64,000 nucleotides of DNA from Candidatus Bathyarchaeia archaeon (lineage in GTDB: Archaea; Thermoproteota; Bathyarchaeia; 40CM-2-53-6), in the NCBI GenBank assembly GCA_050013255.1, contig JBEKFP010000001.1, forward strand, positions 1,343,938-1,407,937, read 5' to 3'. The translations under genes and the position numbers were made by a program. The notes beneath the pieces were generated by a model. The model was given only the letters and a program-made list of their open reading frames with translations, ran no database searches and was not told where the DNA came from. Shown here one piece after another: positions 2,605-59,782 of this stretch. Every line of letters starts with the position of its first letter. Positions within the stretch are counted from its first letter, which is position 1.

Positions 2605-2699
2605 AGTGTGTGTGTGTGGGTCTAATGGTGCGAGCGCTCGAATTTGAACCGGTTCATATATACCGGTAAATTGGGGTCAGAATCCCCTGCCCCGCACCA
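2605..2699. repeat. Mosaic intergenic repeat, copy 1 (two back-to-back GCACCA cores)
   Basis: Reverse complement aligns to 8981-9055 (TTCTGACCCCAATTTACCGGTA...GGTTCAAATT...CGCACCA...GACCCACACAC). Confidence 0.9.
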
Positions 2700-2782
2700 C
2701 GTACGAATCCCAGACATTTCAGAAGTTTTGAGTAGTATCAGTCTTGGTCTCTATTCTTTGATCATCCGCTGGGGTCTTGATT

Positions 2783-3520
2783 TTATGGTTCTTGAAGCAT
2801 ATGTTGTTTATTGCCAAACCGGTTATGGTGCATGAAGTCCTTTACGTCGCGGCGCACTCGCAGATAGTCAGCTAGCGCAGAGCGGGGGTAGCCCACTCGG
2901 GCGGCAAAGGCAATCTTCATGTATTCAGGAATATTGAGAATCTTTTTCACCTCTTTCTCGACGGGGATTCCGCTGAAGACGCTCAGTATATGAAAGCCAA
3001 TCCCCAGGGATTGAGCCATGAGCCACATGTTCTCCATAACGCAGCCGAGACTCATAATCCCCAAGACATCTCCCTCCGAAGCAGGCGCCCTTTTCCTGGA
3101 GTCATAGATCACTATCAAAAGCGTTGGGCTGCCCTGAATGCGTTCCTGCAGGGGCCACGGGCCCTCACGAACAGCTTCATCCAACCTAGCAGGATCACTC
3201 CATGACGGGGGGAACATGGCGGCGAGAATTCCAACCTTCTTTTGGAGGAACTCCTTCTTCGAGAACGAGAGTTGTTCATAGTTTTCCCTGATGAACTCCT
3301 CTGATACCTGAGACTTTATGTGCCCTATTTCTTTCAGAATTTCCTCGTCGTCGATGACGAGAACTTCGAAGTTCTGCATGTTGTGGGCCGTGGGCGCCCA
3401 GCGCCCGGCTTCAAGAATTTGCCTCAAATCCTTTTTGGTCACAGAACGCTCCCGATCAAAGAGTCCCCTCGACGAGTGCCTTTCCTCGATGAGCTTCAGG
3501 AGATTAGTCATGATGACCAT
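2783..3520 (-). CDS. Nitroreductase family protein
   Basis: IEERHSSR, ILEAGRWAPTAHNMQ and ENMWLMAQSLGIG motifs. Confidence 0.9.
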   Translation of the reverse strand: MVIMTNLLKLIEERHSSRGLFDRERSVTKKDLRQILEAGRWAPTAHNMQNFEVLVIDDEEILKEIGHIKSQVSEEFIRENYEQLSFSKKEFLQKKVGILAAMFPPSWSDPARLDEAVREGPWPLQERIQGSPTLLIVIYDSRKRAPASEGDVLGIMSLGCVMENMWLMAQSLGIGFHILSVFSGIPVEKEVKKILNIPEYMKIAFAARVGYPRSALADYLRVRRDVKDFMHHNRFGNKQHMLQEP

Positions 3521-3651
3521 CCCACCTTCAGAACCGCCAGAAAATGAACGTTTCCGACAAGTATCACAGGTCCTTCAAGCGCTAGAATCCGGAGAGACTG
3601 TACCTACAATAATACCGTCTACTAGGAATTCTTACACCAACAATGGGAGCC

Positions 3652-3690
3652 TATATGTACCGGTAAATTGGGGTCGGCTGGTGCACACAC
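3652..3690 (-). repeat. Mosaic intergenic repeat, copy 2
   Basis: TATATGTACCGGTAAATTGGGGTCGGCTGGTGCACACAC; shares TACCGGTAAATTGGGGTC with copies 1 and 3. Confidence 0.85.
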
Positions 3691-3723
3691 GAAATGACAT
3701 CCATGTCTTGATTTTGGGTTAAG

Positions 3724-5037
3724 TTACATCGCAACGTAATGGACTCGCCTTAGCTTCTCACCTTCTGGGCGCCACGTAAGCTGCTTGTCTACGCGCAACT
3801 GCATGAAGTTAACGACATTATCAACGACCTTGTTCAGCCTGCTTATGGCTAGGGAGTTGTTCCTAAGCTTCTTCAAATCTTCTTTCGTGTTCTCGCTGAG
3901 GCTTGAGAGGTTGTACCAGATCCCGAAGGGCGGGAGGATGTAACCCAAGTTCTGTAGGACCACGAACACGTCCCAGGCCACTTTGTAAGCGCCGTCCTCG
4001 TGGCCATTCACGAATATGCCGACGGGCCGGCCCGCCCAGTCAACATGTTCAACTTTCAGCCCAATATCCTGCAGGTTCGTCAACCGATCCAAGAATACCT
4101 TAAGCCGGCTGTTCATCCCCTCCCAATTGATCGGCGTAACCACAATCAACGAGCGGGCACGAACGAGTTTCGGGTAGATCTTACGCATGTCATCATGCAT
4201 ATTGTTGCAGGGAAACCTGCAGAAATCATCTTCCAGGGAATAGCAAGCCCAGTTATGCTCAATCTTATGTTTCGCCAAGTCCACCCAATCATACGTCACC
4301 GCCGGGTGCGCCTCTCTAAGCCTCTCGATGATTCTTGGGGCTATGAAGCCGCTGACAATATGTTGCGGGTGGGCGCTGGCGCTTATGATGAGCACGTCGA
4401 TAGGAGGCTGCGCGGCGATGTCACGCCAGAACTCAATTCGCCGATCAAGAAACTCGCTCTTCTGCACGCTTTTCGTTAAGTATTCAGTTACTGCGTCTTC
4501 CTCAATCGGGTACGTCGCCTTATGGGTCAAGAGTTGGGCCGCGAGCTTCTCTTTGGATTTGATTAATTCCCAAGGCGCCTTACACTTTGCACATAACTTG
4601 GGCGGCAACCGGCCGGTGTACTCATCCATGCAGATCAAGCATTTCCAAACAGAATTGTCATTCGCCTGTTCCTCCGGCGGTTCCAGCTTGAACGCAAATT
4701 CGTCCGCTACGGGTTTGCGTGGGGAGGTTGCTTGTCGGGAGATTAGTATTTCGTCGCCTTCCACTTTCACCGCGTAACTTTCCACTTGCTCAGGCGCACC
4801 CTTAGGAGCCTTCCCTGTCTTCGGGTCGTACCTGTACCCATGCCAGGGGCAAACAACGTTTCCATCCTTGTCGAAGGCACCGTCGATTAACGGCCCACCC
4901 ATATGCGCGCAAACGTTCGAAATAGCAAAGTAACCATTATCAATCTGAAAAACCGCAACCGACTTTCCTTCAACCTGGCCTAGGTATCGGTTATTTGAGA
5001 AATCCTTCTTCGAACAAACACGGACAAACGATTCCAT
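3724..5037 (-). CDS. Fusion of Rieske [2Fe-2S] ferredoxin, rubredoxin-like CxxC domain and flavodoxin/NADPH-dependent FMN reductase (iron-sulfur flavoprotein-like)
   Basis: CAH...CPWHG (Rieske), WKCLIC...LCAKC, then C...C..PC...DDM and VTPINW...RLKVFLDRL. Likely start is ATG 5037 (ORF track starts at 5088). Confidence 0.8.
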   Translation of the reverse strand: MESFVRVCSKKDFSNNRYLGQVEGKSVAVFQIDNGYFAISNVCAHMGGPLIDGAFDKDGNVVCPWHGYRYDPKTGKAPKGAPEQVESYAVKVEGDEILISRQATSPRKPVADEFAFKLEPPEEQANDNSVWKCLICMDEYTGRLPPKLCAKCKAPWELIKSKEKLAAQLLTHKATYPIEEDAVTEYLTKSVQKSEFLDRRIEFWRDIAAQPPIDVLIISASAHPQHIVSGFIAPRIIERLREAHPAVTYDWVDLAKHKIEHNWACYSLEDDFCRFPCNNMHDDMRKIYPKLVRARSLIVVTPINWEGMNSRLKVFLDRLTNLQDIGLKVEHVDWAGRPVGIFVNGHEDGAYKVAWDVFVVLQNLGYILPPFGIWYNLSSLSENTKEDLKKLRNNSLAISRLNKVVDNVVNFMQLRVDKQLTWRPEGEKLRRVHYVAM

Positions 5038-5138
5038 AACATTCCATGAGCGTGAGACGTATGAAAACCTAGGCCTACTCAGCCTCAATCAACGGAGAGT
5101 AAATAAGAGAAATTCGCCATCGAGACAAATGAACAAAC

Positions 5139-5534
5139 ATGACAACCGATGAGGAGATCTTAGAAGAATTAAGGAAGATTCGAGAAGCACTTTCACCGAA
5201 ACCTACTCCGCCGCCGCCAAAGCCCAAAGGTATGTGGGCCGAGTTCATAGAATTCATCGGCAAAGCGGGGGTAATCGGGTTGGCTGTAGGCTTCATAATG
5301 GGTACTTACATTGGCAAAGTGGTCTCGGCACTTGTTCAGGACATTATAATGCCCATCCCCGGCGCGCTGTTGCCGGGAGGCGATTGGAGAAAGGCGGTAT
5401 TCACCATCCCAATCGGACAGGGGATGAATTTTGCTGTGGGTGACTTTGTGGGCGTTATGTTTGACTTTCTCATTGTCGCGGTTGTCATCTTCTTCATCGC
5501 CAGATACGCTATGAGAGCTATGGAAAAAAAGTAA
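5139..5534 (+). CDS. mscL: Large-conductance mechanosensitive channel MscL, atypical N-terminal extension
   Basis: EF.EFI...GVIGLAVGFIMG...VVSALVQDIIMP and GDF...FDFLIVAVVIF motifs. Confidence 0.85.
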   Translation: MTTDEEILEELRKIREALSPKPTPPPPKPKGMWAEFIEFIGKAGVIGLAVGFIMGTYIGKVVSALVQDIIMPIPGALLPGGDWRKAVFTIPIGQGMNFAVGDFVGVMFDFLIVAVVIFFIARYAMRAMEKK

Positions 5535-5572
5535 CCCAGGAACAGCCTCGAACCGCCAGCTGCCTGCGAGGT

Positions 5573-6739
5573 TTACTGTATTTCTTCTTCTCCTTCAGTC
5601 ACGGTTATCCCACGTTTTCCAGACGCCAGTTCCTTCAAGAACTCGCTGGGCTCGACGCAAAGCTCAGGGGGCAGGGTGCCTCGTTTAGTTATTCTTCCCG
5701 ATGCAAGCCACTGTGCGATTACGGAAGGGGGTGTTCCTGTGCCGACCGTCCCGCCGCCAATGTTCCACCGTTCGTTTGGAACGCTGACAGCGTCTACCCA
5801 AATCCTGACCCGCTTTCCATCACGCTTACCGAATCCCTCAACCCTTTGGCAGTCAACATCTAATTCTACACTCGTGGGTTTCGGGAGGGAGTCAATGACC
5901 GAAGTTAACACGTCGTAGGGGACGATGTCTTGGCCCCTAACCTTGACGGGCGTCTTCTTAGTCAAACCCAGCTGGGTTAGGAGGACGATTGATTTTGTGA
6001 ATTCGGGTGGGTATGCGACTATGAAATCCATTTCCTTGATCCCTTTTCCTATGTTGAACGGCATCGTGGCTAGCTCAGAATGAATGGTGTAATACCCCTC
6101 CATCCTGCCGATGGGGTCGGGTAGTGTGAAAGATTCCTTTCCAGAAAGCGCCGGAATCTCTTGAATCCTCCCGTCGCGAAGTATGATCGGTGGGATTGTA
6201 AACTCATCCAGGACAGTTCGTATCGCGTAAGGGACCTGGAATCCTCCGCCTCCTTTGACGACCGTGGAGCCGCTGCGCAGTTTCATCACCTCCACCTCAT
6301 CCAACTTTTCAGCGACGTAGGCTCCCATCACATTCATTGTTCCAGGCGTACTGCCCATTCCCAAAACGCAAGTAACATTCGCGTCATTCGCAGCCTTGTC
6401 CAACTCCAGCTGCTTCTTCGTCATGTGGTATAGTCCACCGAGGTCGAGGTAGTGTATGCCCGCTGAGATGGCTGCTTGCATGACCTGCAGGTTCAACTCG
6501 TACCAGGTCGAGTTAACAACCGCATCCCAGTCTCTCATAATCCCGGTTAACTGTGCGTTTTCACGAGCGTCCGCGGACAGTGGGACGGCGCGTTCGTCTC
6601 CTAAACTTCGCGCCGCTGCTTCGGCTCGTTCAAGGCGCAGGTCCGCAACCCCTACTTTCTCTACTTTGCTGTTCCCTAGCATGTTCCTGATTGTGACCTG
6701 AGCCATAGCTCCGGCTCCGCCAAGCACTAAGATTCGCAA
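5573..6739 (-). CDS. Saccharopine dehydrogenase / lysine 6-dehydrogenase-like oxidoreductase
   Basis: RILVLGGAGAMA Rossmann motif, HYLDLGG, GMGSTPG, HSELATMP. Start probably TTG 6739. Confidence 0.85.
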   Translation of the reverse strand: MRILVLGGAGAMAQVTIRNMLGNSKVEKVGVADLRLERAEAAARSLGDERAVPLSADARENAQLTGIMRDWDAVVNSTWYELNLQVMQAAISAGIHYLDLGGLYHMTKKQLELDKAANDANVTCVLGMGSTPGTMNVMGAYVAEKLDEVEVMKLRSGSTVVKGGGGFQVPYAIRTVLDEFTIPPIILRDGRIQEIPALSGKESFTLPDPIGRMEGYYTIHSELATMPFNIGKGIKEMDFIVAYPPEFTKSIVLLTQLGLTKKTPVKVRGQDIVPYDVLTSVIDSLPKPTSVELDVDCQRVEGFGKRDGKRVRIWVDAVSVPNERWNIGGGTVGTGTPPSVIAQWLASGRITKRGTLPPELCVEPSEFLKELASGKRGITVTEGEEEIQ

Positions 6740-6833
6740 ATGAAATCGCCCCTCGTATGTCCTAACGGCATATTCCACCAGGTGGAAATAGCCTTATCAG
6801 ACTTTATCCCGTAGAGCTAAAGGTTGATGAATA

Positions 6834-7433
6834 ATGGGCCTCCTTCGTTCTATCCTTGTCGGCCTGCTCGTTCTTGTCGCCGTTGTTTCAGTTGCTTTCA
6901 TAGGATACAGTGGCCTGAACCCTCACGTAGTAACTGTGACACAACAGCAACTTCTAACAAACACTCAGAGCCTTTTCAGCACACAAACGGTGACCAGCCT
7001 TAGTATGGTAACGAGTTTTCAAACGGTCACAAGCGCAACAACCGCTGGGTTTGGAAATGTTTACACTGGGCCTGGGTACGGGTACAATCCGAATTACCCG
7101 AACTGTTCGTATTATGGATGCTACTACACACCACCCGCCTACGCTTCTATCTCTGATCTCTGCAAGACGACAGGCCAGAATAGTACGGTTCAATGCTCCG
7201 GCTACCTTCACGAAGCCTCGAGCGCGTGCACAGAACTTGCAATTCCCTACTACAACCCGGACATTTTGGAGTCAACGGCCTACCTGTACTTGACGTTGTA
7301 CAATCTGCCGTCAAACCATCCTGCAAGCGGCGCATGGGTGACGGTGACCGGGGAGCTCAACCAAGGCTACTCTCCAGGGTCCTATGGCGTACTTTGCACA
7401 AGTAACTACATCAACGTGGCTTCAATATCATAA
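6834..7433 (+). CDS. Hypothetical membrane-anchored/secreted protein, Thr/Tyr/Cys-rich
   Basis: N-terminal hydrophobic helix, Thr-rich linker, small C-terminal domain. Confidence 0.6.
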   Translation: MGLLRSILVGLLVLVAVVSVAFIGYSGLNPHVVTVTQQQLLTNTQSLFSTQTVTSLSMVTSFQTVTSATTAGFGNVYTGPGYGYNPNYPNCSYYGCYYTPPAYASISDLCKTTGQNSTVQCSGYLHEASSACTELAIPYYNPDILESTAYLYLTLYNLPSNHPASGAWVTVTGELNQGYSPGSYGVLCTSNYINVASIS

Positions 7434-7555
7434 AGAAAAAAGAGTCAGCTGGCCAACTAACAATTATATTCAAGCCATGCTAGGCTGCGCCTACGACTCA
7501 CCTAAAGTGGCTTCATTTTATATTAAACCTCAGCTAATGAAGGGATGATGTCACT

Positions 7556-7933
7556 TTGTTTGAAGGTATCGTCGGCCTAATTATCCAACTAATAATCGCC
7601 GGTATCATCGGCGGCATCTTCGTTTGGTTGGCAGGGAAAGCTCTAGGAGCACCAAGGGCCACCTATTGGCATGGGATTCTAATCGTTGTTTCAGCGATAA
7701 TCCTCAGTGACATCATAGGTTACTTCCTGGGCGGTCTCGGCTGGATTAAGACCATCATAGAAATTATCGTAATCCTTCTGCTGATCAAACACTTCTTCGC
7801 GGTCGGATGGATAAAGGCAATTGTAATTGCAATCTTGGCTGTGATCATAGCGATCATAGTCACCTTTGTCCTTGCCCTGCTCGGGCTTGCCTTCGCCGCC
7901 ACAGCACTGAAGGGCCTAATCCCAGGACTATAA
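7556..7933 (+). CDS. Hypothetical 4-TM membrane protein
   Basis: Highly hydrophobic 125 aa ORF preceded by a TATA-like TTTTATATTAAA. Confidence 0.7.
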   Translation: MFEGIVGLIIQLIIAGIIGGIFVWLAGKALGAPRATYWHGILIVVSAIILSDIIGYFLGGLGWIKTIIEIIVILLLIKHFFAVGWIKAIVIAILAVIIAIIVTFVLALLGLAFAATALKGLIPGL

Positions 7934-8743
7934 TCGTCTCGCCTTACAGGGCGAGACTACGTCCTTATGCTTCGCAGGGGGGACTGATTTGGTAGATTTC
8001 TTATCATTCGGTCTTTTCTTACTCAAGAGCAGTGCGCCGATAAGGCACGTCACCAATGTGACGGGAACAACCTGCGGCAGGATCTCCGGAGTAGGAATGG
8101 CGGGGGCGTAAACTAGGCCCAACACCCCGTTACCCTGCACAGTCACGTCGGTAATGTATGAAGTCTGATTATCCACGGTGATCTGACCTTGAGTGAACCA
8201 TTTTACGAAGGAATCGGACGCGTTACGGGGCGCTGCTTCAGCAACGTAGCTTCCCACTGGCAAAGTGGCATTCTGTCCATCCGTCAAGCAGATGGGGCCG
8301 GAGGCGTTTGCGTAATTTAGGAAGCAAACAAAGCCCCGGGTACCGGTGAAGGTGACGATTCCTTCAGTTTGAGTTGCCGGCAGGAAGACGGCAGCCAGGT
8401 TGCCGTCCCCGTTCACCTCGAGCAGCGTATTATTGCCTTGAATGTCCCTTACTGTGACATTGCCCTGGGTGATCCAGTGGCTGAACGTCGCGGAGCTGGC
8501 ATTGTAAAGGAAGGCTGCGAGCGTATAGTTTCCGAAGTCTAAGGTGAAGTTCTGGCTTTCCGCCAAGCAATAAAGCTTGGTGCTGTTGGAGTCGAATATG
8601 CATGCATACCCTAAGTTGCCGCCTGTGTATCTTATGTTCGCGGCCGTCTGTGAATGCACCGGTGCTACCGATACCATAAAAATCAGAAGCGCTACAATCG
8701 AGAGGGTAAGGAAGAGTTTGTTCAAAGTCTTGAAGCTCCGCAC
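7928..8743 (-). CDS. Secreted surface protein with two tandem beta-rich repeats and PE(F)-CTERM-like sorting tail
   Basis: Signal peptide; repeats F(S/V)(H/K)W.TQG..TV...V.G.G.L; C-terminal PTPEILP + TM helix + KKR. Confidence 0.65.
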   Translation of the reverse strand: MRSFKTLNKLFLTLSIVALLIFMVSVAPVHSQTAANIRYTGGNLGYACIFDSNSTKLYCLAESQNFTLDFGNYTLAAFLYNASSATFSHWITQGNVTVRDIQGNNTLLEVNGDGNLAAVFLPATQTEGIVTFTGTRGFVCFLNYANASGPICLTDGQNATLPVGSYVAEAAPRNASDSFVKWFTQGQITVDNQTSYITDVTVQGNGVLGLVYAPAIPTPEILPQVVPVTLVTCLIGALLLSKKRPNDKKSTKSVPPAKHKDVVSPCKARRL

Positions 8744-8980
8744 AAAGTTGTTTTTCGCAATTTATGGTAACCATGACCATGTGAACTGAACTAAGCGAGT
8801 TAGAGGAAATTGAAAGGAGAGCTCAATTTTAAGGTCGCGATGAATGGATGGCGCAATTAACCATGCCGTCCATACAGAACCATCGGCCCATCAGTTGCCA
8901 GTTCGATCAAATGGCTAACTGCTAACTGGGTGTGGGCTCTTCGAGATTGCCCTCAGGCCTTTTACAAGTTTGAATATGGG

Positions 8981-9106
8981 TTCTGACCCCAATTTACCGG
9001 TACATATAACTCGGTTCAAATTTGCTTGCCCGCACCAGCTGACCCACACACACATCAAACGAACGACGTTCCGATTTTGAACGGCCGCGCCAGTGATATT
9101 ACAGAC
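8981..9106 (+). repeat. Mosaic intergenic repeat, copy 3 (two cores)
   Basis: Cores GCACCA 9032-9037 and GCGCCA 9087-9092; matches copies 1 and 4 in inverted orientation. Confidence 0.9.
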
Positions 9107-9118
9107 TAAGCGAGGCTT

Positions 9119-11212
9119 CTATTTTGTTAGGCCACACTGTTTCCTGAGCTTCTTCACCAGTTCCAGGTATCGGGGGTCGGCCCTTGCCCTGGCGAAGAGG
9201 GGCGAGTACGTCACCGCTGAAACAACTAATGCACGGGCTTCGAGGGCCGTGTTCAAGTACTCGAAGAAGGAGTCGAGGTCTCCGAGAGCATGGTAGACGT
9301 ACGCGATGAAGTTGAAGCCTACTGGACCCGGTTTGGCGTCCTCAATCTTCTTGATCGCGAGGAGCGCCTTCTCGCTGTCGCCCTCCATGGCCGCGATGAA
9401 CCCGCCCATCCAGGTGACCCGAGGATTGGTGGGATCGAGCTTCTCCAATTTCGCAAGGAGCTCCTTAGCCTTCTCTAGGTCCCCTTTGGCTAGGTAGTAC
9501 TCCGTCATACCCCTGTACGCGAACGCCGGCGCCAGCTGCTCACCCTTCTTCCAGAACTCCAACGCCTCCTGCTCCCTCCCAGTCCAGAGATATGCCTCCC
9601 CGACACGGTAGATGAAGTCGGGTCTGATGGGGTCCAGTCGGTAGGCTGTCTCGATCTGTCCAACCATCTCCCCCGGATCTCCTTTGAGTGCCGCCAGCTC
9701 GAACAGGTTCCAGTAGGGGTCTGGAAGGTTAGGGTTGAGTTCCAGCGCCCTTCTGGCCTCCGCCTCTGAACCGACGACGTCGTCCTCGTTGAAGAGCATG
9801 GTCGAGAGCGACGAGTGGGCCTCCGGAAGGTTCGGGTCGAGGTTGAGGGCGCGCTCCAGTAGTCGCCTCACAGTCGCGACGGAGATGTCAACGGGCTCAC
9901 TTCCTTTGTCAGAAAGTAATTGGTGACATTCTGCCTCGCCCACGTACGCTCTCGCGAATCTGGGATCCAGCTCGATGGCCTTCTCGAAGAGAGCTATGGC
10001 CTGCCTAAGTGAAGCCTCGGTCTGCTCCCTCAACAGTTCCCTGCCCCGCAGGAAGCAGGTGTACGCCTCAGTGTTCTCGGTAGGCTTCTTCTCCAGGGTT
10101 CTCTTCTCAGAGTCGAGGAGCTGGGTCTTGAGTTCTCCGGCGACCTTCTCAGCTATCTCGCTTTGGACGGCGAAGATGTCGTCCAGATTCTTGTCGTAGT
10201 GGGAAGACCAGAGGTGTTCTTCTGTTCCGGCGTTGATCAGCTGGACTGTGACCCTGATTCGGTTGCCTGCTTTCCTCACGCTGCCTTCTATCAGAGCCCC
10301 GATATTCAGTTCCTTTCCTACTTCCGAGGCTCCCTTCTGAGAGCCCTTGTACTTCATCACCGACGTTCGAGCTATGACCCTCAGACTCTTCACTTGGGCA
10401 AGCCTGTCAATCAGCTCCTCAGTCATGCCGTCCGCGAAGTACCCATCTTCAGGGTTGGAACTCAGGTTTGCAAAAGGCAGAACTGCAATCCGCCTCTTGT
10501 CCAGGCCCAATCCGGTAGCCTCCTGTCTCTCGGCGGCTAACCCTTCAAGTGGAAACTCTTTCTCCGCGGTTTCGATTCCATGCATCCACTTGATTCGTAG
10601 GTACTTCCGCGTTCCGCCTTCAGATTCCTTCTCGAAGATCTCAACGTTGCCGTCGAAAAGGTCCACGACTGCCTGAACGTCCTCGGCTGAATGCATGTAC
10701 GGGTTGAGGACGGATAGGGTTGTGATACTCTTCGACCGCAGCCGTTCAAGAAGTTCCGTAAGCCATTTCCGTGTCTGCAACGCCTTATGGCGAAGCAGAA
10801 TGTCCGAGAGGATGTTGATAACCAAACGTTTCGGTTGAGTTGAAGCGATAACTTCATTGATTTGTAGGTTTACGTCCGTTAGGTTCTCGATTCCCTTCCC
10901 TGGGATGATGTTTCTTGCTGGTGAGACGGGTTTATCGCTGCAAACCAACGACCTGACATTCTTACCCATATTTTGCGTAATCGTTTCGGCTGAGGAAATC
11001 GTGCGGCATATCAGTAGGGCCTCTTCCTTTGAGGCTCTGAGGAAGTTTGCAACGAGAAGCGGAACCTCATCACTTGCAGCGGCATTCAAAACGATGGAAG
11101 AAGCTGCGAGAAAGCCGCCTTGAAGCGCTTCATCCAGCCTACCGTAACCAGTCGAAACCTTCGTGCTCACAGAACTGGCTGAGACGCCTTCAGAAGTCAT
11201 ATAACTCGCCAT
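9119..11212 (-). CDS. Degenerate KaiC/RAD55-like domain fused to TolB-like N-terminal domain and TPR repeats
   Basis: STGYGRLDEALQGG (RecA-like start, no Walker A); IAVLPFANLS...YFADGMTEELI...VIARTS...EGSVRKAGNRIRVTVQLI; multiple TPRs. Confidence 0.85.
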   Translation of the reverse strand: MASYMTSEGVSASSVSTKVSTGYGRLDEALQGGFLAASSIVLNAAASDEVPLLVANFLRASKEEALLICRTISSAETITQNMGKNVRSLVCSDKPVSPARNIIPGKGIENLTDVNLQINEVIASTQPKRLVINILSDILLRHKALQTRKWLTELLERLRSKSITTLSVLNPYMHSAEDVQAVVDLFDGNVEIFEKESEGGTRKYLRIKWMHGIETAEKEFPLEGLAAERQEATGLGLDKRRIAVLPFANLSSNPEDGYFADGMTEELIDRLAQVKSLRVIARTSVMKYKGSQKGASEVGKELNIGALIEGSVRKAGNRIRVTVQLINAGTEEHLWSSHYDKNLDDIFAVQSEIAEKVAGELKTQLLDSEKRTLEKKPTENTEAYTCFLRGRELLREQTEASLRQAIALFEKAIELDPRFARAYVGEAECHQLLSDKGSEPVDISVATVRRLLERALNLDPNLPEAHSSLSTMLFNEDDVVGSEAEARRALELNPNLPDPYWNLFELAALKGDPGEMVGQIETAYRLDPIRPDFIYRVGEAYLWTGREQEALEFWKKGEQLAPAFAYRGMTEYYLAKGDLEKAKELLAKLEKLDPTNPRVTWMGGFIAAMEGDSEKALLAIKKIEDAKPGPVGFNFIAYVYHALGDLDSFFEYLNTALEARALVVSAVTYSPLFARARADPRYLELVKKLRKQCGLTK

Positions 11213-11390
11213 CAGTCACGACCTGCCAGATATACTAACTCCCGATAAGAGTTCTGCTTCACATCCGCCTCCGCATTCTACACCTTGACGAAGCTTCCCC
11301 AGATAGTTACACAAGGATTGATGTTTGCTGGTGCTTTGGAAACGGCGGTCCTATCACAGACGGACTGTCGATTCTAACCATTGTTCTCTT

Positions 11391-11546
11391 GTGTGTGGTA
11401 TCACTGGTGCGTCCGTTCAAAATCGGAACGTCGTTCGTCTAGTTGTGTGTGTGTGTGCGCGCACCAGCTGACCACACACACACTTTTCCAAACGACGACG
11501 TACGACGGTTCAAATTACGACGCCCGCACCACCAGTACCACACACA
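11391..11546. repeat. Mosaic intergenic repeat, copy 4 (three cores)
   Basis: Cores at 11405-11410 (-), 11461-11466 (+) and 11526-11531 (+). Confidence 0.9.
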
Positions 11547-11549
11547 TTT

Positions 11550-12287
11550 CTACTGAACTATCGTTACTTCGCCGGTCTCTGAAACGTTCAGTCGTTGCCA
11601 TCGTGAGTCGAATTTCTTACCGCGCATTCTTCTGATCCGCACAAGTTGCGTGATCTCTCCCTCTTTATCTTCACATTTGAAGTCGATAATTCCATCGTTA
11701 ATCGTCTCAAACTGAGAGCGAAACGTTTCCGACACTGTTCCCTTCAGGATTGAATAAATGGTTACGTTCTGAAGGGGTCTTGAGAAAGGAATATGTCTCG
11801 TTCGCCAAAAATCCAGCACATTAATCTCGGCATTGTATCTTGTCATAATGGCAGTGTTATCATCGACATGTACCCACCACTTTTCGCCCTCAGGAATTCC
11901 CTTCTCTCTTCCCTTCTTGACGAATTGGGCGTGGTTGATGCTTAGGTCAGGAATCTTCAGTGATTTGGCGACCGGATCCTCCTGCTCAACGGGATTTAGT
12001 CCCCCCATCTGCACAGTAAGACTGTCCACGATCCGGAACAAACCGTCATCTTGAAGCTTGGCAAGGTCTAATCCGAATTTTCTCAGATCGTGTTCTATAT
12101 CGGCCGGAGGGTGCTGGAATGTATGGTACAATGCCTTGTGGTCGTTCCTTAGTGCCTGGGCTGTAATCGTTAGCGAAGCTTCGTACCATGCGGAGTCTGG
12201 CTCGAATTCTACCAGTAAATTGCTGCCAAATTCAACGCCATCTGGAAGAAGTCGTTCAAAGATGGGAATGAACAGATTTGTTAGCAA
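11550..12287 (-). CDS. KaiC/RAD55-like ATPase-domain protein, Walker A degenerate
   Basis: IP....LPDGVEFGSNLLVEFEPDS, DGIIDFK, VRIRRMRG..FDSRW; paralog of the next gene. The ORF-track extension to 12446 runs through a repeat, so TTG 12287 is preferred. Confidence 0.8.
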   Translation of the reverse strand: MLTNLFIPIFERLLPDGVEFGSNLLVEFEPDSAWYEASLTITAQALRNDHKALYHTFQHPPADIEHDLRKFGLDLAKLQDDGLFRIVDSLTVQMGGLNPVEQEDPVAKSLKIPDLSINHAQFVKKGREKGIPEGEKWWVHVDDNTAIMTRYNAEINVLDFWRTRHIPFSRPLQNVTIYSILKGTVSETFRSQFETINDGIIDFKCEDKEGEITQLVRIRRMRGKKFDSRWQRLNVSETGEVTIVQ

Positions 12288-12354
12288 ATCCCTTGTCCAA
12301 TATCTGATAACTCCGAATAGCTTGAATTTCTGTCTTCCGATTACGCGCCCCAGT

Positions 12355-12452
12355 TGTGTGTGCCTACAATGGTGCGAGCATCGAAATTTGAACCGTCGTC
12401 CGTCGTCTTTAGAAAGTGTGTGTGGTATGCTGGTGCGCACACACACAGAAAA
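12355..12452 (-). repeat. Mosaic intergenic repeat, copy 5 (two cores)
   Basis: Reverse complement aligns over ~100 bp with 11444-11546. Confidence 0.9.
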
Positions 12453-12463
12453 TCCTGAGGCCT

Positions 12464-13165
12464 CTACTTGTCGAGGGTGACTTCGAAATTGTCACCGATC
12501 TTGACTTGATGCCAGTGTGAATCGAAGTGCGCGTCCCTCATGCTCCTTATTCGAATCATGGTTCTTGTCTCTTCGGCTACTTCTTCGAGTTTGAAATCTA
12601 TGATCCCGTCAGCAGCTGCTTCCAACTGCTTGTAGACAGAGTCGCTGTGAAAGCCCCTAATCAACCCCGCTAAGTTCGTCGATTTACGCAACTTCTGGGC
12701 TGGAAAGTTTCTTGTGAGCAGATACTCAACCCATGACCGCTCATCGTTGAACCTAGCGAATGTTGAGATGTTGTCGGCGATTCTCAACCAGTTAGGATCA
12801 GGTGGCTCGCGCATGACCTGTCTCGAAAAGACTATGTTTAGATCGGCAGCCTTCAACGATTCCTGCGAATACTTCTCACTTGATTTGAGACCCAGCGTAG
12901 CCGTGTACCAATCCTGAATACGAAGTTTGTCTTCCTTTTCGAGGCTTTCGACACTAACCCCGAGTCTGCTAAGTTTGGAACGAATGTCATCCGGTGTTTG
13001 GGTGAATAAGTTGTAACTGACTTTCCCTCCCTGCTTGAGCCATCCTGCCGCGATCGTCAGAGACGCATTGATCCATTGCGACGCAGGATCAAACTCCACT
13101 AACAGCATGGAACCGCCCGGGACGGGGTCGGTAGTCAAATCCTCTATCATAGGAATCTTGGGCAA
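12464..13165 (-). CDS. KaiC/RAD55-like ATPase-domain protein, Walker A degenerate
   Basis: GSMLLVEFDPASQW, ADGIIDFKLEE and IRIRSMR...FDSHW motifs. Confidence 0.8.
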   Translation of the reverse strand: MPKIPMIEDLTTDPVPGGSMLLVEFDPASQWINASLTIAAGWLKQGGKVSYNLFTQTPDDIRSKLSRLGVSVESLEKEDKLRIQDWYTATLGLKSSEKYSQESLKAADLNIVFSRQVMREPPDPNWLRIADNISTFARFNDERSWVEYLLTRNFPAQKLRKSTNLAGLIRGFHSDSVYKQLEAAADGIIDFKLEEVAEETRTMIRIRSMRDAHFDSHWHQVKIGDNFEVTLDK

Positions 13166-13210
13166 GTTCGGAGCACACAGTGGTCATGTGTCGAGTTTAC
13201 AGATTTGGCG

Positions 13211-13250
13211 TTTTCTGTGTGTGTGCGCACCAGCTGACCCACACACACAG
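13211..13250 (+). repeat. Mosaic intergenic repeat, copy 6 (symmetric form)
   Basis: CTGTGTGTGTG-CGCACCAGCTGACC-CACACACACAG: perfect 11-bp inverted arms around a 14-nt spacer. Confidence 0.9.
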
Positions 13251-13302
13251 ATCCCTCCGTTTGGAGCCAAGAGTTATCATCTAGAGTTAGAGGCTCACAC
13301 GA

Positions 13303-14064
13303 CTAAAGTGCTGAAAAAGTGAGGTAGGCTCCGACTGTAATCAGAACAAGGCCGATAGTTCGCTTCACGTTTGTCTGACTCAGCCTTTGAGACCCAAAAT
13401 AGCTTCCCAGCTGAGCTGACACAAGTAAAACTGGGATAGTCGGAAGGAATACCGGCGACGAGAAGATCAAGCCACCCAGCCGCGGTATTCTAGCCACTAT
13501 GCCTGACACGGAATTGAGAAGAATAAACACTGTCGTAGTTGCCGCCGTCGTCTTAGGCTTAGCCATCCCCGCCAAGATCAGGACAGGGGCCAAATACACA
13601 CCGCCACCAATCCCAGTCAGCCCAGCAACAGCTCCGATGACCATGCCGATCATTATCTTGAACGGCCATTTCAGATCAAAGTGACCTAACGGGAATGTAA
13701 TGAGAATCAAACTAGCTCCACCACAAGTAATCGCCAACCCCATGACGATTTTCAGCAAGACGTCAGGCAGAACAAATAAGCCTGCAAGGAACGCTGCTGG
13801 AACAGAGCCGACAATAAACCACGCGAGGTCGCGTGAGAAATGCACGCGCCATCGAAATATCGAACTGGAGGCAGACACGACATTAAACAACAAACCGCCA
13901 AAAGAGGACTGTGCGGCTGACAATCCGATTAGGAGCAAGATCGCGGTAAACGTCGAGCCACCCGCAAACCCAGCTAACGTGTAGAACAAACTAGCCAACC
14001 CTAACAGAACTACGATAATGACCGCGCCGAAGGCTTCCAATTGAAATCCAGACAGCCAGTTCAC
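13303..14064 (-). CDS. Sulfite exporter TauE/SafE family protein
   Basis: GFAGGS and AGLTGIGGGVYLAP motifs; ~8 TM helices. Confidence 0.85.
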   Translation of the reverse strand: MNWLSGFQLEAFGAVIIVVLLGLASLFYTLAGFAGGSTFTAILLLIGLSAAQSSFGGLLFNVVSASSSIFRWRVHFSRDLAWFIVGSVPAAFLAGLFVLPDVLLKIVMGLAITCGGASLILITFPLGHFDLKWPFKIMIGMVIGAVAGLTGIGGGVYLAPVLILAGMAKPKTTAATTTVFILLNSVSGIVARIPRLGGLIFSSPVFLPTIPVLLVSAQLGSYFGSQRLSQTNVKRTIGLVLITVGAYLTFSAL

Positions 14065-14133
14065 GGCGTCGGCATAAGCCTTGGTAAGCAGAAACGATTA
14101 CATTCGAGCAGAGTTTTGTGCTTATGAAAGTGT

Positions 14134-14553
14134 TTGACTAAGTTCAAGCCGCCAAGCACAATATTGACCCAGAGACAATGGCAAGTCATACGGCTTAGAG
14201 CAACAGGCCTTACGCAAATGCAAGTTGCAAAACGCCTTCACACAAGTCGAGAGAACATCAGCATCATCGAACATCGTGCCTACGAAAACGTGAGGGCGGC
14301 GAAGGCTACCCTTGAGGCACTAGAACAGGTCTCAGACTCCAGAGAATTGATCATACCAAGTGGAACGAGCATCTTCGACGCCACATCCACGGTTCTACGT
14401 AAGGGAGACATGTTGCGAACAAAGCTGAAAATGAACGCTGATTCAATTCTAGCCATGTTACGATCCCGATGTAAACACAAGATACGTGGGCATCATTTGA
14501 CATCAGCAATCCGAATTGAGATCACCGAAGACGGCACTGTCAGAATGAGGTAA
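14134..14553 (+). CDS. Tfx family DNA-binding protein
   Basis: LTQRQWQVIRLR..GLTQ..VA..L.TSRENISIIE.RA.EN...A..TL, then IP.GT. Confidence 0.85.
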   Translation: MTKFKPPSTILTQRQWQVIRLRATGLTQMQVAKRLHTSRENISIIEHRAYENVRAAKATLEALEQVSDSRELIIPSGTSIFDATSTVLRKGDMLRTKLKMNADSILAMLRSRCKHKIRGHHLTSAIRIEITEDGTVRMR

Positions 14554-14590
14554 AATTATTTCGACTCATAACTGGATGTTTCAACGCCGG

Positions 14591-14626
14591 TTTTGTGTGT
14601 GTGCGCACCATTAGACCCACCACCAC
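14591..14626 (+). repeat. Mosaic intergenic repeat, copy 7
   Basis: TTTTGTGTGTGTGCGCACCATTAGACCCAC; CGCACCATTAGACCCAC is identical to the reverse complement of copy 1. Confidence 0.85.
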
Positions 14627-15365
14627 GAAGAACTAGATCTCTAAGTCACGGATGGTGAAGGGGACGGCCGCCGCACCCTCGTCGGCAAAGGCTACCCCAC
14701 ATTTTTCGCACTTGAATGACTGTGGAAGGGGCGCAGGCGGTCCAGACGGTTGGGCGATTTCTGCTGCAGGCTCCAGGCTCGTTTCCGTTGTCGGTTCGGC
14801 GTTGGGGGTACCCGTATTCTCATCTCCACGATCTTTCCATCCAAATCCGTGAAATTCTAGTCATTCGTCATTCGTTCGGCTTGAGGGCTGGTTGTACGGT
14901 CTTTCGGGGTTCGCCATATCGAGAATCACCCTAATTCCTTATATGTTGAAATGTACTACACAACTACAGGTGCCATGAATTGAACTACGACTATGATGGT
15001 TTGAATGAATTGTTCGACAAAGGCGCATATCACAAGGCCGGACCGTTTGGACTGAAGGGCATCATGGCCGCTTTCAGACGACACAATCTCGAGGCGCACA
15101 TACCGCTCATAATCGGATTTCTCTATGCGCTCTCTGGCGATTACATATCCCTACTCCGCCACCTAAGAATGGTCATCTAGACCCTTAGGCCACTAGACTG
15201 GCATCTAGGTTCGTCTAACGGGACACCATTCCAGCCCCGTGGGCTCGTACCCTCGGCTTTCGGTTGCATCAATCACGTGTGGTGACTAGAAGTTTTAGAC
15301 CAACTCTCTGTCTAACCCGGCACGTTTCTTAGTTGTGGTTTTCCCGGCGTCGTAAGAATTACAGT

Positions 15366-27064: not shown

Positions 27065-27283
27065 GGCCCGGGATTAGATCCATGAGGTGACTAACGGGTA
27101 GAACTTTGCTATCATCAATCAACCGCCTCATTCTATATGCTACGGCGCAGACGAAGCTAGTTTGAAAGTCAGCCTCAATCAATTCCGGTAGCCTATCTAG
27201 CTGTAGTTCGCCCCCGAACCTTGGTACGGGATTCGCTAATCGAGAGTTAACCCTAAATTTCCGATTCCTCTGTGCTCGAATGA

Positions 27284-27380
27284 AGGTACCGGGGGAGCTG
27301 GGAAAATCCCGGCTGAGAGGACGGCTCACGTCGCCGTCGACCCCGTGAACCTGATCCGGGTAATGCCGGCGTAGGGAGTG
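27284..27380 (+). ncRNA. TPP riboswitch aptamer
   Basis: GGGGAGC...GGCTGAGAG...GACCCCGTGAACCTGATCCGGGTAATGCCGGCGTAGGGAG matches the TPP consensus; lies upstream of thiT. Confidence 0.95.
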
Positions 27381-27484
27381 TGCTAAGTGAACGCTAGTCG
27401 TGCAACTTTCCGCAATCCATCTAGAGCGTTCCATATCGCTGTCCTCGGTAACCTTCAACCAAAACGTGGAGGTGAAATTGGACA

Positions 27485-34557: not shown

Positions 34558-34673
34558 GGGCCGGTAGTTCAGCCTGGTATGCCAAGTGTTCGCTGGGCCA
34601 AAGAACGTCCGGTTTGCAAGTTCTTCACCAAGCTTCCGGAAGGTCGCGGGTCCGAATCCCGCCCGGTCCACCA
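34558..34673 (+). tRNA. tRNA-Ala(UGC) with two BHB introns (21/22: 34581-34602; 37/38: 34619-34634), CCA encoded
   Basis: Acceptor GGGCCGG/CCGGTCC with G3:U70; anticodon TGC 34615-34617; cloverleaf restored after intron removal. Confidence 0.92.
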
Positions 34674-59474: not shown

Positions 59475-59782
59475 GGGTTGTGCGTGTTGGCCGTAACCCA
59501 CCTTCTGTTTTAGGCGACATTCATCTAATCGGGATACCCGCGCCTCAGGCGGCTTTCACGGGCGCCTATTATCCCTTTCACAGCGTGTGTAGGCATTTCA
59601 CCCTTACCGCCAGCCTCCTCAACGCAAGCGCATCATAGTCCACGGCTAGCGGAGGTATTTTTCTGCGCCTTAACCCAACCTCTCGGCTGGCACCTCACAG
59701 TGCCACGCGTCCGCCATGTGGGTGGAGTTTCCTCAGGCCCATTACACACAGGGCCCGGAGTCGCTCACCAACTCGCCAACCC
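59475..59782 (-). ncRNA. rnpB: Archaeal RNase P RNA
   Basis: Minus strand has GAGGAAACTCCACCC and AACAGAAGGTGGGTTA (the two P4 strands); terminal GGGTTG/CAACCC helix. Confidence 0.93.

Follow-up and report, generated by a model that had tools for sequence, protein, structure and literature searches.

The intergenic repeats described here lie in a window of 64,000 nt from the metagenome-assembled genome of an uncultured Candidatus Bathyarchaeia archaeon of peat or wetland (GenBank assembly GCA_050013255.1, contig JBEKFP010000001.1; G000:C1:1343938-1407937 in the notation used below, in which G000 is this 2.46-Mb, 50% GC assembly and C1, C2 and C3 are its contigs). One half of each repeat resembles the 3′ end of a tRNA and the other half is rich in CA, and we conclude that the tRNA-like half is very probably the target site of a casposase (a Cas1-family transposase) of the family-2 type. 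The anatomy of the sites, the short duplications that they contain, the homology of the enzyme, the occupancy of real tRNA genes and the conservation of the pattern are all directly observed, and they are presented in the following sections. The mechanism is of a known kind; the many non-tRNA copies of the target, here called decoys, in arrays of cassettes that carry no Cas1 gene appear to be new, and a limited literature search returned only passing mentions of casposons in Bathyarchaeia or of non-autonomous casposon derivatives.

Anatomy of the sites

Each site is made up of an 18-bp leader, G-TTCAAWT-T-N4-YGCC, and a 14-bp duplication that starts with CGCA(CCA). When all genomic occurrences of CGCACCA are listed with their neighbours, ~70 sites read leader or element tip, then CGCACCA-N7, then element tip; on the left stands the 18-bp T-loop-like block in some of them and the (TG)n end of the neighbouring unit in the others. 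Of the 311 CGCACCA in the genome, 51 have their first CACAC at +14 from the initial C, and no other offset is found more than four times. Five families of tips occupy +14, mostly (CA)n and otherwise CACACCTATG, GGGGATATTACAT, CGCCCCCGCC or CCTCCTCGCT. Because four unrelated tips also occur at this position, the CA-rich arm is not part of the tRNA-like half; it is the terminal inverted-repeat tip of an inserted element. The symmetric TG/CA copies, which a preliminary description of the window made from its sequence had taken for attP-like sites, are instead the right tip of one element, a 14-bp duplication and the left tip of the next element, so that two elements share one duplication.

The same description had offered a SINE-like (short interspersed nuclear element-like) repeat derived from a tRNA, with its own (CA)n tail, as an alternative. 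A tRNA-like segment beside a simple repeat, present in ~70 intergenic copies, does look like such an element or like a miniature inverted-repeat transposable element, but the cores are not accompanied by the 5′ part of a tRNA, the sequence upstream is unrelated between copies, any of the four other tips can substitute for (CA)n at +14, and the (CA)n runs on into the long inverted repeats of gene-carrying units. We therefore consider this origin highly improbable.

Among the decoys (n = 33) the elements G-TTCAAWT-T and YGCC are conserved, positions 62-65 (tRNA numbering) are free and the N7 end is weakly conserved; this division into conserved and free positions agrees with the published map of the casposase target. 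About half of the decoys, which are by definition non-tRNA sites, sit tens of bp or less inside the end of a mobile cassette.

Extent of the likeness to tRNA

Four cores of the form GGTTCAAAT-N12-ACCA had been described, and the window contains exactly these four, at 2626-2650 (minus strand), 9013-9037 (plus), 11507-11531 (plus) and 12370-12394 (minus), hereafter cores 1 to 4. Over 100 shuffled versions of the window the mean number is 0.06, and no shuffle reached four. The fifth core, GGGGTCAGAATCCCCTGCCCCGCACCA, is also present as described, at 2673-2699. The spacing holds in larger sets of copies: GTTCAA[AT]-N11-GCACCA occurs 32 times in the 2.46-Mb genome, where every other spacing from 0 to 39 occurs at most twice, and in 45 genomes of the family, scanned with a free gap of 2-20, ~97% of >200 matches (in 24 genomes) share one gap, while a reversed-pattern control gave no matches in the same 45 genomes.

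When the 5 nt before the loop are compared with the 5 nt after it, the repeat copies form 1-4 of the five T-stem pairs, which is the chance level, and real tRNAs form all five. Identity to the best real tRNA 3′ ends is 19-21/28 for cores 1-4 and 24/28 for core 5, which matches real tRNA ends (class II, Leu-like) at C1:211617, 310399 and 525008. Because the stem positions are unpaired and cores 1-4 reach only 19-21/28, the mimicry is one of sequence and spacing: it covers the T-loop, the distance to the end and the CGC-ACCA end itself, as had been proposed, and excludes a foldable T-arm.

An entirely different possibility is that the cores act as RNA, supplying a tRNA-like 3′ structure for transcript processing, CCA addition or stability. 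Their ends do encode CCA, and the 74-nt segment 2626-2699, in which cores 1 and 5 stand head-to-head with the limits TGGTGCG...CGCACCA, is predicted to fold more stably than its shuffles (z −2.6 and −3.7). That stability is due to the inverted terminal 7-mers, however, and typical cores fold no better than shuffles (z +0.5 to +2.0), with T-stem pairing at chance; Rfam, with its cut-off relaxed to E 10, has no match in the first locus, 2400-2900, and the orientation of cores to their neighbouring genes is inconsistent, core 2 being antisense to both. A role as RNA is extremely unlikely. The fold predicted for 2626-2699 is three-way and cloverleaf-like, and it is not recognised as a tRNA. ARAGORN called no tRNA in the window; when introns were allowed genome-wide its calls were unreliable, some of them having implausible introns of 1-2 kb.

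Cas1 genes and the elements that carry them

The genome has two Cas1 genes by Pfam (C1:1333420-1334640 and C3:231179-232381), both inside repeat clusters, and no Cas2 was found in it. The C1 protein aligns over residues 4-402 with residues 21-412 of the Methanosarcina mazei casposase 6OPM (E 3.9e-74), a full-length alignment that extends into the C-terminal (helix-turn-helix, HTH) region. Its gene lies ~10 kb to the left of the window in a casposon-like, polymerase-less element of 16.3 kb (G000:C1:1330273-1346555), whose terminal inverted repeats of 132 bp (82% identity) start with (CA)n. The 14-mer GGTCTAATGGTGCG, the reverse complement of CGCACCATTAGACC, stands on both sides of this element with 14/14 identity. 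The right 2.6 kb of the element, at 1-2618 in the window, includes genes for a DNA methylase and a DndB-like protein and ends, at 2618, with the (TG)n of the right terminal repeat. The duplication D0 (CGCACCATTAGACC, 2619-2632, minus) and the 18-bp T-loop-like leader U0 (GGTTCAAATTCGAGCGCT, 2633-2650, minus) follow, and core 1 is simply U0 together with the first 7 bp of the duplication of the Cas1 element. The fifth core (2673-2699, plus) is a class-II (Leu-like) tRNA 3′-end-like fragment that is unoccupied, with no tip at +14. The cargo of the C1 element, which lies at G000:C1:1330273-1343937 and at 1-2435 in the window, is of the defence type and encodes AIPR, N6/N4 DNA methylase, DndB-like, HATPase_c_3 and DUF2130 proteins.

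The second Cas1 element, on C3, has a CGCCCCCGCC tip and a subterminal region rich in ACGACGGTAGGAAC-type repeats; its limits are uncertain, and between its presumed ends BLAST found no long inverted repeat beyond the tip. The casposase gene there has an HNH endonuclease gene before it and, directly after it, one that encodes a TIR-domain (Thoeris ThsB-like) protein (G000:C3:229850-233566). Pfam scans of the open reading frames (ORFs) of the Cas1 elements found no polymerase, and neither element has one of family B: all PF00136 matches in the genome are on contig C2, and PF03175 has none.

A 5.2-kb element at C1:716105-721311, with a GGGGATATTACAT tip and unrelated terminal inverted repeats (74 nt, 99% identity), occupies a leader site, has a 13/14 duplication and lends independent support. 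No casposase matching its GGGGA tip was found in this genome. It encodes an 1134-aa protein without a Pfam match and a second protein that weakly matches MauJ.

The cassette array in the window

A four-cassette array begins at the leader U1 (GGTTCAAATTTGCTTGCC, 9013-9030, plus), which is the array head and belongs to core 2. U1 is followed by D1 (CGCACCAGCTGACC, 9031-9044, plus) and by the Cas1-less cassette E1 (9045-11459), which carries a KaiC-ATPase/TPR gene (9119-11212, minus, Pfam). E1 has (CA)n tips and inverted ends of ~60 nt each (inverted repeat I3: 48 nt, 90%), with a degenerate internal site in each end, and its flanks D1 and D2 (CGCACCAGCTGACC, 11460-11473, plus) are a direct duplication identical at 14/14. 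A paralogue of E1 (79% identity) lies in the C3 array beside a different N7. D2 is a symmetric TG/CA junction, and beyond it the KaiC-like cassette E2 (11474-12423) has an internal leader and site in both of its inverted ends: U2 (11507-11524) with CGCACCACCAGTAC (11525-11538) on the plus strand, which is core 3, and CGCACCATTGTAGG (12363-12376) with U3 (12377-12394) on the minus strand, which is core 4. Both cores are within the two arms of inverted repeat I2 (55 nt, 84%). D3 (CGCACCAGCATACC, 12424-12437, minus) is inverted relative to D2 and D4 and is followed by the KaiC-like cassette E3 (12438-13225), which has CACACACACAGAAAA tips (I8). D4 (CGCACCAGCTGACC, 13226-13239, plus) is identical to D1 and D2, so that the pair E2+E3 is flanked by the same direct 14-mer. 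The last cassette, E4 (13240-14603), contains genes for a TauE/SafE exporter and a TFX-type regulator, and D5 (CGCACCATTAGACC, 14604-14617, plus) forms the array tail, with no tip after it. We note that E1-E3 (9119-13165) are three successive KaiC-like ATPase cassettes, one with a TPR fusion, and that a weak paralogue of E3 lies next to the Cas1 element.

Whether the internal copies of leader and site, namely cores 3 and 4 along with roughly half of the decoys, are targets at all deserves separate consideration. They could be subterminal casposase-binding sites or hitch-hiking relics of older junctions, and this we hold to be possible, if rather unlikely. Cores 3 and 4 do lie inside the E2 ends, which consist of a 55-nt inverted repeat at 84% identity; a (CA)n run stands shortly upstream of 16 of the 33 decoys here (6-26 nt) and of 15/33 in relatives' loci (7-39 nt); ACGACGG-type subterminal repeats occur in the terminal repeat of the C3 Cas1 element and directly before TTCAAAT in copies of the site; and the array head U1 came with its block and was not resident. 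On the other hand, another element tip stands exactly at +14 of every internal site, as if each had been hit, and the two N7 segments of E2 share 0/7 positions in spite of the 84% identity of their flanks, which suggests separate events. A non-target role of the internal copies is compatible with casposase targeting of the array heads.

The array is preceded by the module GGTTCTGACCCCAATTTACCGGTACATATAACTC (8979-9012, plus), which stands directly before U1 and is an inverted copy of 2651-2685, with a partial third copy at 3652-3675. A repeated module associated with the arrays, (T)ATAT(A/G)TACCGGTAAATTGGGGTC, is found in the window at 2656-2678, 3652-3675 and 8985-9008 and elsewhere at G000:C1:1245948, 1323340 and 198054, and at 3652-3690 it adjoins a degenerate TGGTGC + ACACAC junction. 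This module may be the tip of a further element family.

With regard to structured RNAs, Rfam at gathering thresholds finds only a TPP riboswitch (27281-27395, plus), one intron-containing tRNA of 113 nt (34558-34670, plus) and the archaeal RNase P RNA (59482-59776, minus) in the window.

Real tRNA genes and integrases

The real tRNA-Gly genes of the lineage have a 3′ end of ...GGCCGC-ACCA, in agreement with the CGC-ACCA end that had been expected of them. In this genome tRNA-Gly(GCC) (C1:1132371-1132501, 40.7 bits) ends GGGTTCAAATCCCGGCGGCCGCACCA, with CGCA as positions 70-73, and 7 bases after it lies a decayed copy of the inverted repeat of the Cas1 element. In relatives (L119, G305, G236 and G275) the orthologous multi-intron tRNA-Gly(GCC), which is missed by Rfam gathering thresholds and was read by eye against the copy of this genome, precedes N7 and then a clean CACAC tip; in G305 a short array follows the tRNA gene, and the same string is present in further genomes. 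The anticipated arrangement of a tRNA-Gly gene followed by a spacer and an element is thus found intact in relatives, as tRNA-Gly(GCC)-N7-(CA)n tip, and with a decayed tip here. In this genus tRNA-Gly(GCC) has 2-3 introns at non-canonical positions (also at L119 1117-1272, L138, L139 and L140).

The tRNA-Gly(TCC) gene on contig C3 also ends CGCACCA. Its 3′ end is present as a 27-nt direct repeat (GAATCCCGGCGGCCGCACCAA.CTCTC) at C3:239078-239104 and C3:241310-241336, ~2.2 kb apart, and the duplicate lies ~40 bp upstream of the leader that holds the second Cas1 element, at the head of the C3 array. This 27-nt repeat may have been left, in the manner of an att site, by some other integrated element.

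These observations bear on the original proposal that the repeats are hybrid att sites of a tRNA-targeting tyrosine integrase, with the symmetric copies as the attP-like form. The likeness to a tRNA 3′ end is genuine, and the tRNA-Gly(TCC) duplicate on C3 could be an integrase-type att remnant; tyrosine-integrase att sites resemble the sites described here in that elements land at the 3′ ends of tRNA genes. At such att sites, however, the enzyme is a different one, the duplicated core is longer and the elements have no terminal inverted repeats. Here only 14 bp are duplicated, no second copy of the leader stands beyond the insert, terminal inverted repeats reach 132 bp, and Cas1 genes lie inside two of the clusters. 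Since only 14 bp are duplicated and the units carry terminal inverted repeats, the grammar is that of a transposon and not of attL/attR. The three tyrosine integrase genes of the genome (C3:28755, C3:131514 and C2:259232) are all outside the repeat clusters, beside tRNAs ending CCCACCA or CCCGCCA, and no integrase gene was located in or beside a cluster. What survives of the proposal is a tRNA-targeting enzyme and a half-site modelled on a tRNA 3′ end. The tyrosine class does not, since it is Cas1 genes that sit in the clusters, nor does the att arm, which is a transposon tip next to a 14-bp duplication, and the att explanation as a whole is most unlikely.

Distribution in Bathyarchaeia

The pattern of leader, site and tip occurs in 32 of 301 sampled Bathyarchaeia genomes (control 0), and it clusters in three genera that belong to a single order (11/13, 6/8 and 4/7). 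At E <= 1e-40, casposase homologues are present in 13/301 genomes, and sites are present in 9 of these 13, which is to be read as an association and not as a statistical test, since related genomes in the sample are non-independent and many are incomplete. The decoys differ between genera: in one genus they read CGGCCGC, the acceptor strand of the true tRNA-Gly, and YGC(C/T)CGC takes its place in the genus to which this genome belongs. In a pattern scan of wider contigs the full grammar was found, among the matches listed, at Bathyarchaeia loci only, and most of the matches listed are chance occurrences in bacteria. Logan contigs from four peat/wetland runs end at the repeats, and each of their joints has a short side of 20-39 nt.

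Comparison with known systems

Two published casposon systems come closest to these sites. The target of the Aciduliprofundum boonei casposon consists of the duplicated segment and exactly 18 bp upstream of it, where the 3′ end of a tRNA gene encodes the T-psi-C loop; downstream sequence is dispensable, repeated insertion at one site was foreseen, and the target is one real tRNA-Pro gene with a target-site duplication (TSD) of 15 bp (PMC5137440). The bathyarchaeal sites share this two-part target with its 18-bp T-loop upstream segment, and they differ in their 14-bp TSD, in their model tRNA (Gly or Leu-like) and in being mostly non-tRNA decoys. These decoys do not have the T-arm palindrome that Beguin et al. 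(2016) suspected might matter.

The family-2 casposons of M. mazei have a TSD of 14 bp that starts with 5′-CGCA, the last 4 bp of tRNA-Leu; the casposase needs CGCA, the 4 bp 5′ of CGCA and the upstream tRNA block, its HTH domain is essential, and a tandem pair sharing one duplication, solo terminal repeats and intergenic sites with similar duplications are known (Krupovic et al. 2016, PMC4779613; Hickman et al. 2020, PMC6977970). The 14-bp TSD from CGCA (70-73) and the C-terminal HTH region of the casposase are shared with the elements described here. In contrast to M. mazei, with its PolB genes and two-element arrays, the bathyarchaeal elements are PolB-less, their arrays have up to nine sites, and most units are Cas1-less with one or two ordinary genes. 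They have (CA)n tips where the M. mazei elements have ...CCC, and the R191/R192 pair of the M. mazei enzyme is not conserved.

The sites also resemble the CRISPR leader-repeat junction in that integration of the Cas1-family type is directed by a leader, an adjacent short segment is duplicated and an array of repeats and inserts results. The inserts here are 0.8-16 kb with inverted ends, whereas spacers are ~30 bp; there is no Cas2 here, the repeats are 14 bp (24-47 bp in CRISPR), and orientation flips within arrays. Integron arrays likewise have single-gene cassettes split by short imperfect palindromes, but unlike attC sites the bathyarchaeal sites have no IntI and no R/L-box, and their palindrome is two element tips around a target duplication.

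Proposed mechanism and its standing

We propose the following course of events. The leader would be a copy of two tRNA segments, the T-loop and the acceptor strand on the 3′ side, with G53-TTCAAWT-T61, four free positions and YGCC, and the 14-bp segment would begin at CGCA(CCA), tRNA positions 70-76, where a 14-bp staggered cut would leave it duplicated on both sides of the insert. The original target in the lineage would have been the real tRNA-Gly(GCC) gene, most of the present copies being non-tRNA decoys. Repeated insertion beside the leader, together with inversions between similar element ends, could then have produced the stacked Cas1-less cassettes that are split by 14-mers. We infer that the enzyme recognises the T-loop box and CGCA, and the decoys are presumably still in use as targets. 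More tentatively, the decoys may be portable landing pads in the ends of Cas1-less cassettes, such that each insertion would bring a fresh leader and site and the array would extend itself; we think this possible but doubtful.

Several points weigh against the casposase-target explanation. The role of the sites as targets is read from sequence. Neither Cas1 element has a family-B polymerase, and hence these are not textbook casposons. The positions of R191/R192, which read CGCA in M. mazei, are S-H-(Q/N) in both casposases here, and because of this replacement the recognition of CGCA must, to judge from the residues, differ in detail from that of M. mazei. The perfect duplication at the Cas1 element is weaker evidence than it might appear, since TTAGACC is found in 13 of 70 sites. 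The identity of N7 between adjacent pairs is not significant (4/47, P 0.13); in favour of the explanation, N7 sharing within clusters exceeds that in shuffles (14 vs 6.2, P ~0.012) in a same-cluster test that took the place of the adjacent-pair test after the latter proved non-significant.

Two further difficulties of the same kind concern the array itself. Several cassettes have inverted 14-mer flanks (D2/D3 and the two sites inside E2), which simple transposition does not predict; the order D2 > E2 < D3 E3 D4 > is the one expected if the stretch between the outer ends of two neighbouring elements were inverted. Congeners G281 and G260 do not have the block 8979-14664, leader included, at the orthologous locus, and comparison with them revealed no 14-bp duplication at the borders of the block. 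As U1 is absent there with the whole block, it was not a resident chromosomal target, and the array, or its head, was therefore gained or lost by another route. In G260 the region orthologous to window 7970-14890 (G260:C9, L134, 10402-12015) has a single gene in place of the cassette array, whose product is repeat-rich and surface-type with a zinc-ribbon-like motif at its end.

Significance

The integrase that inserts CRISPR spacers is presumed to descend from casposases, and a leader and a short duplicated segment that guide repeated insertion are at the core of the question of how CRISPR arose. The bathyarchaeal loci offer hundreds of natural variants of such a target, with positions 53-61 and 66-76 fixed and with 62-65 and the T-stem pairing free to drift, and they contain arrays in which one 14-bp segment is reused to stack cassettes that have no enzyme of their own. 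If the decoys are indeed landing pads, they would constitute a Cas1-driven gene-capture platform with an integron-like outcome and a leader-and-repeat-like mechanism, and a living example of the proposed intermediate between casposon and CRISPR array; the decoys would then also be a natural mutational scan, according to which the casposase reads the T-loop and CGCA and not the T-arm palindrome. The system is thus a candidate natural example of Cas1-mediated gene capture that makes testable predictions about target recognition, and for annotation it accounts for a puzzling intergenic repeat family in the Bathyarchaeia of peat and wetland.

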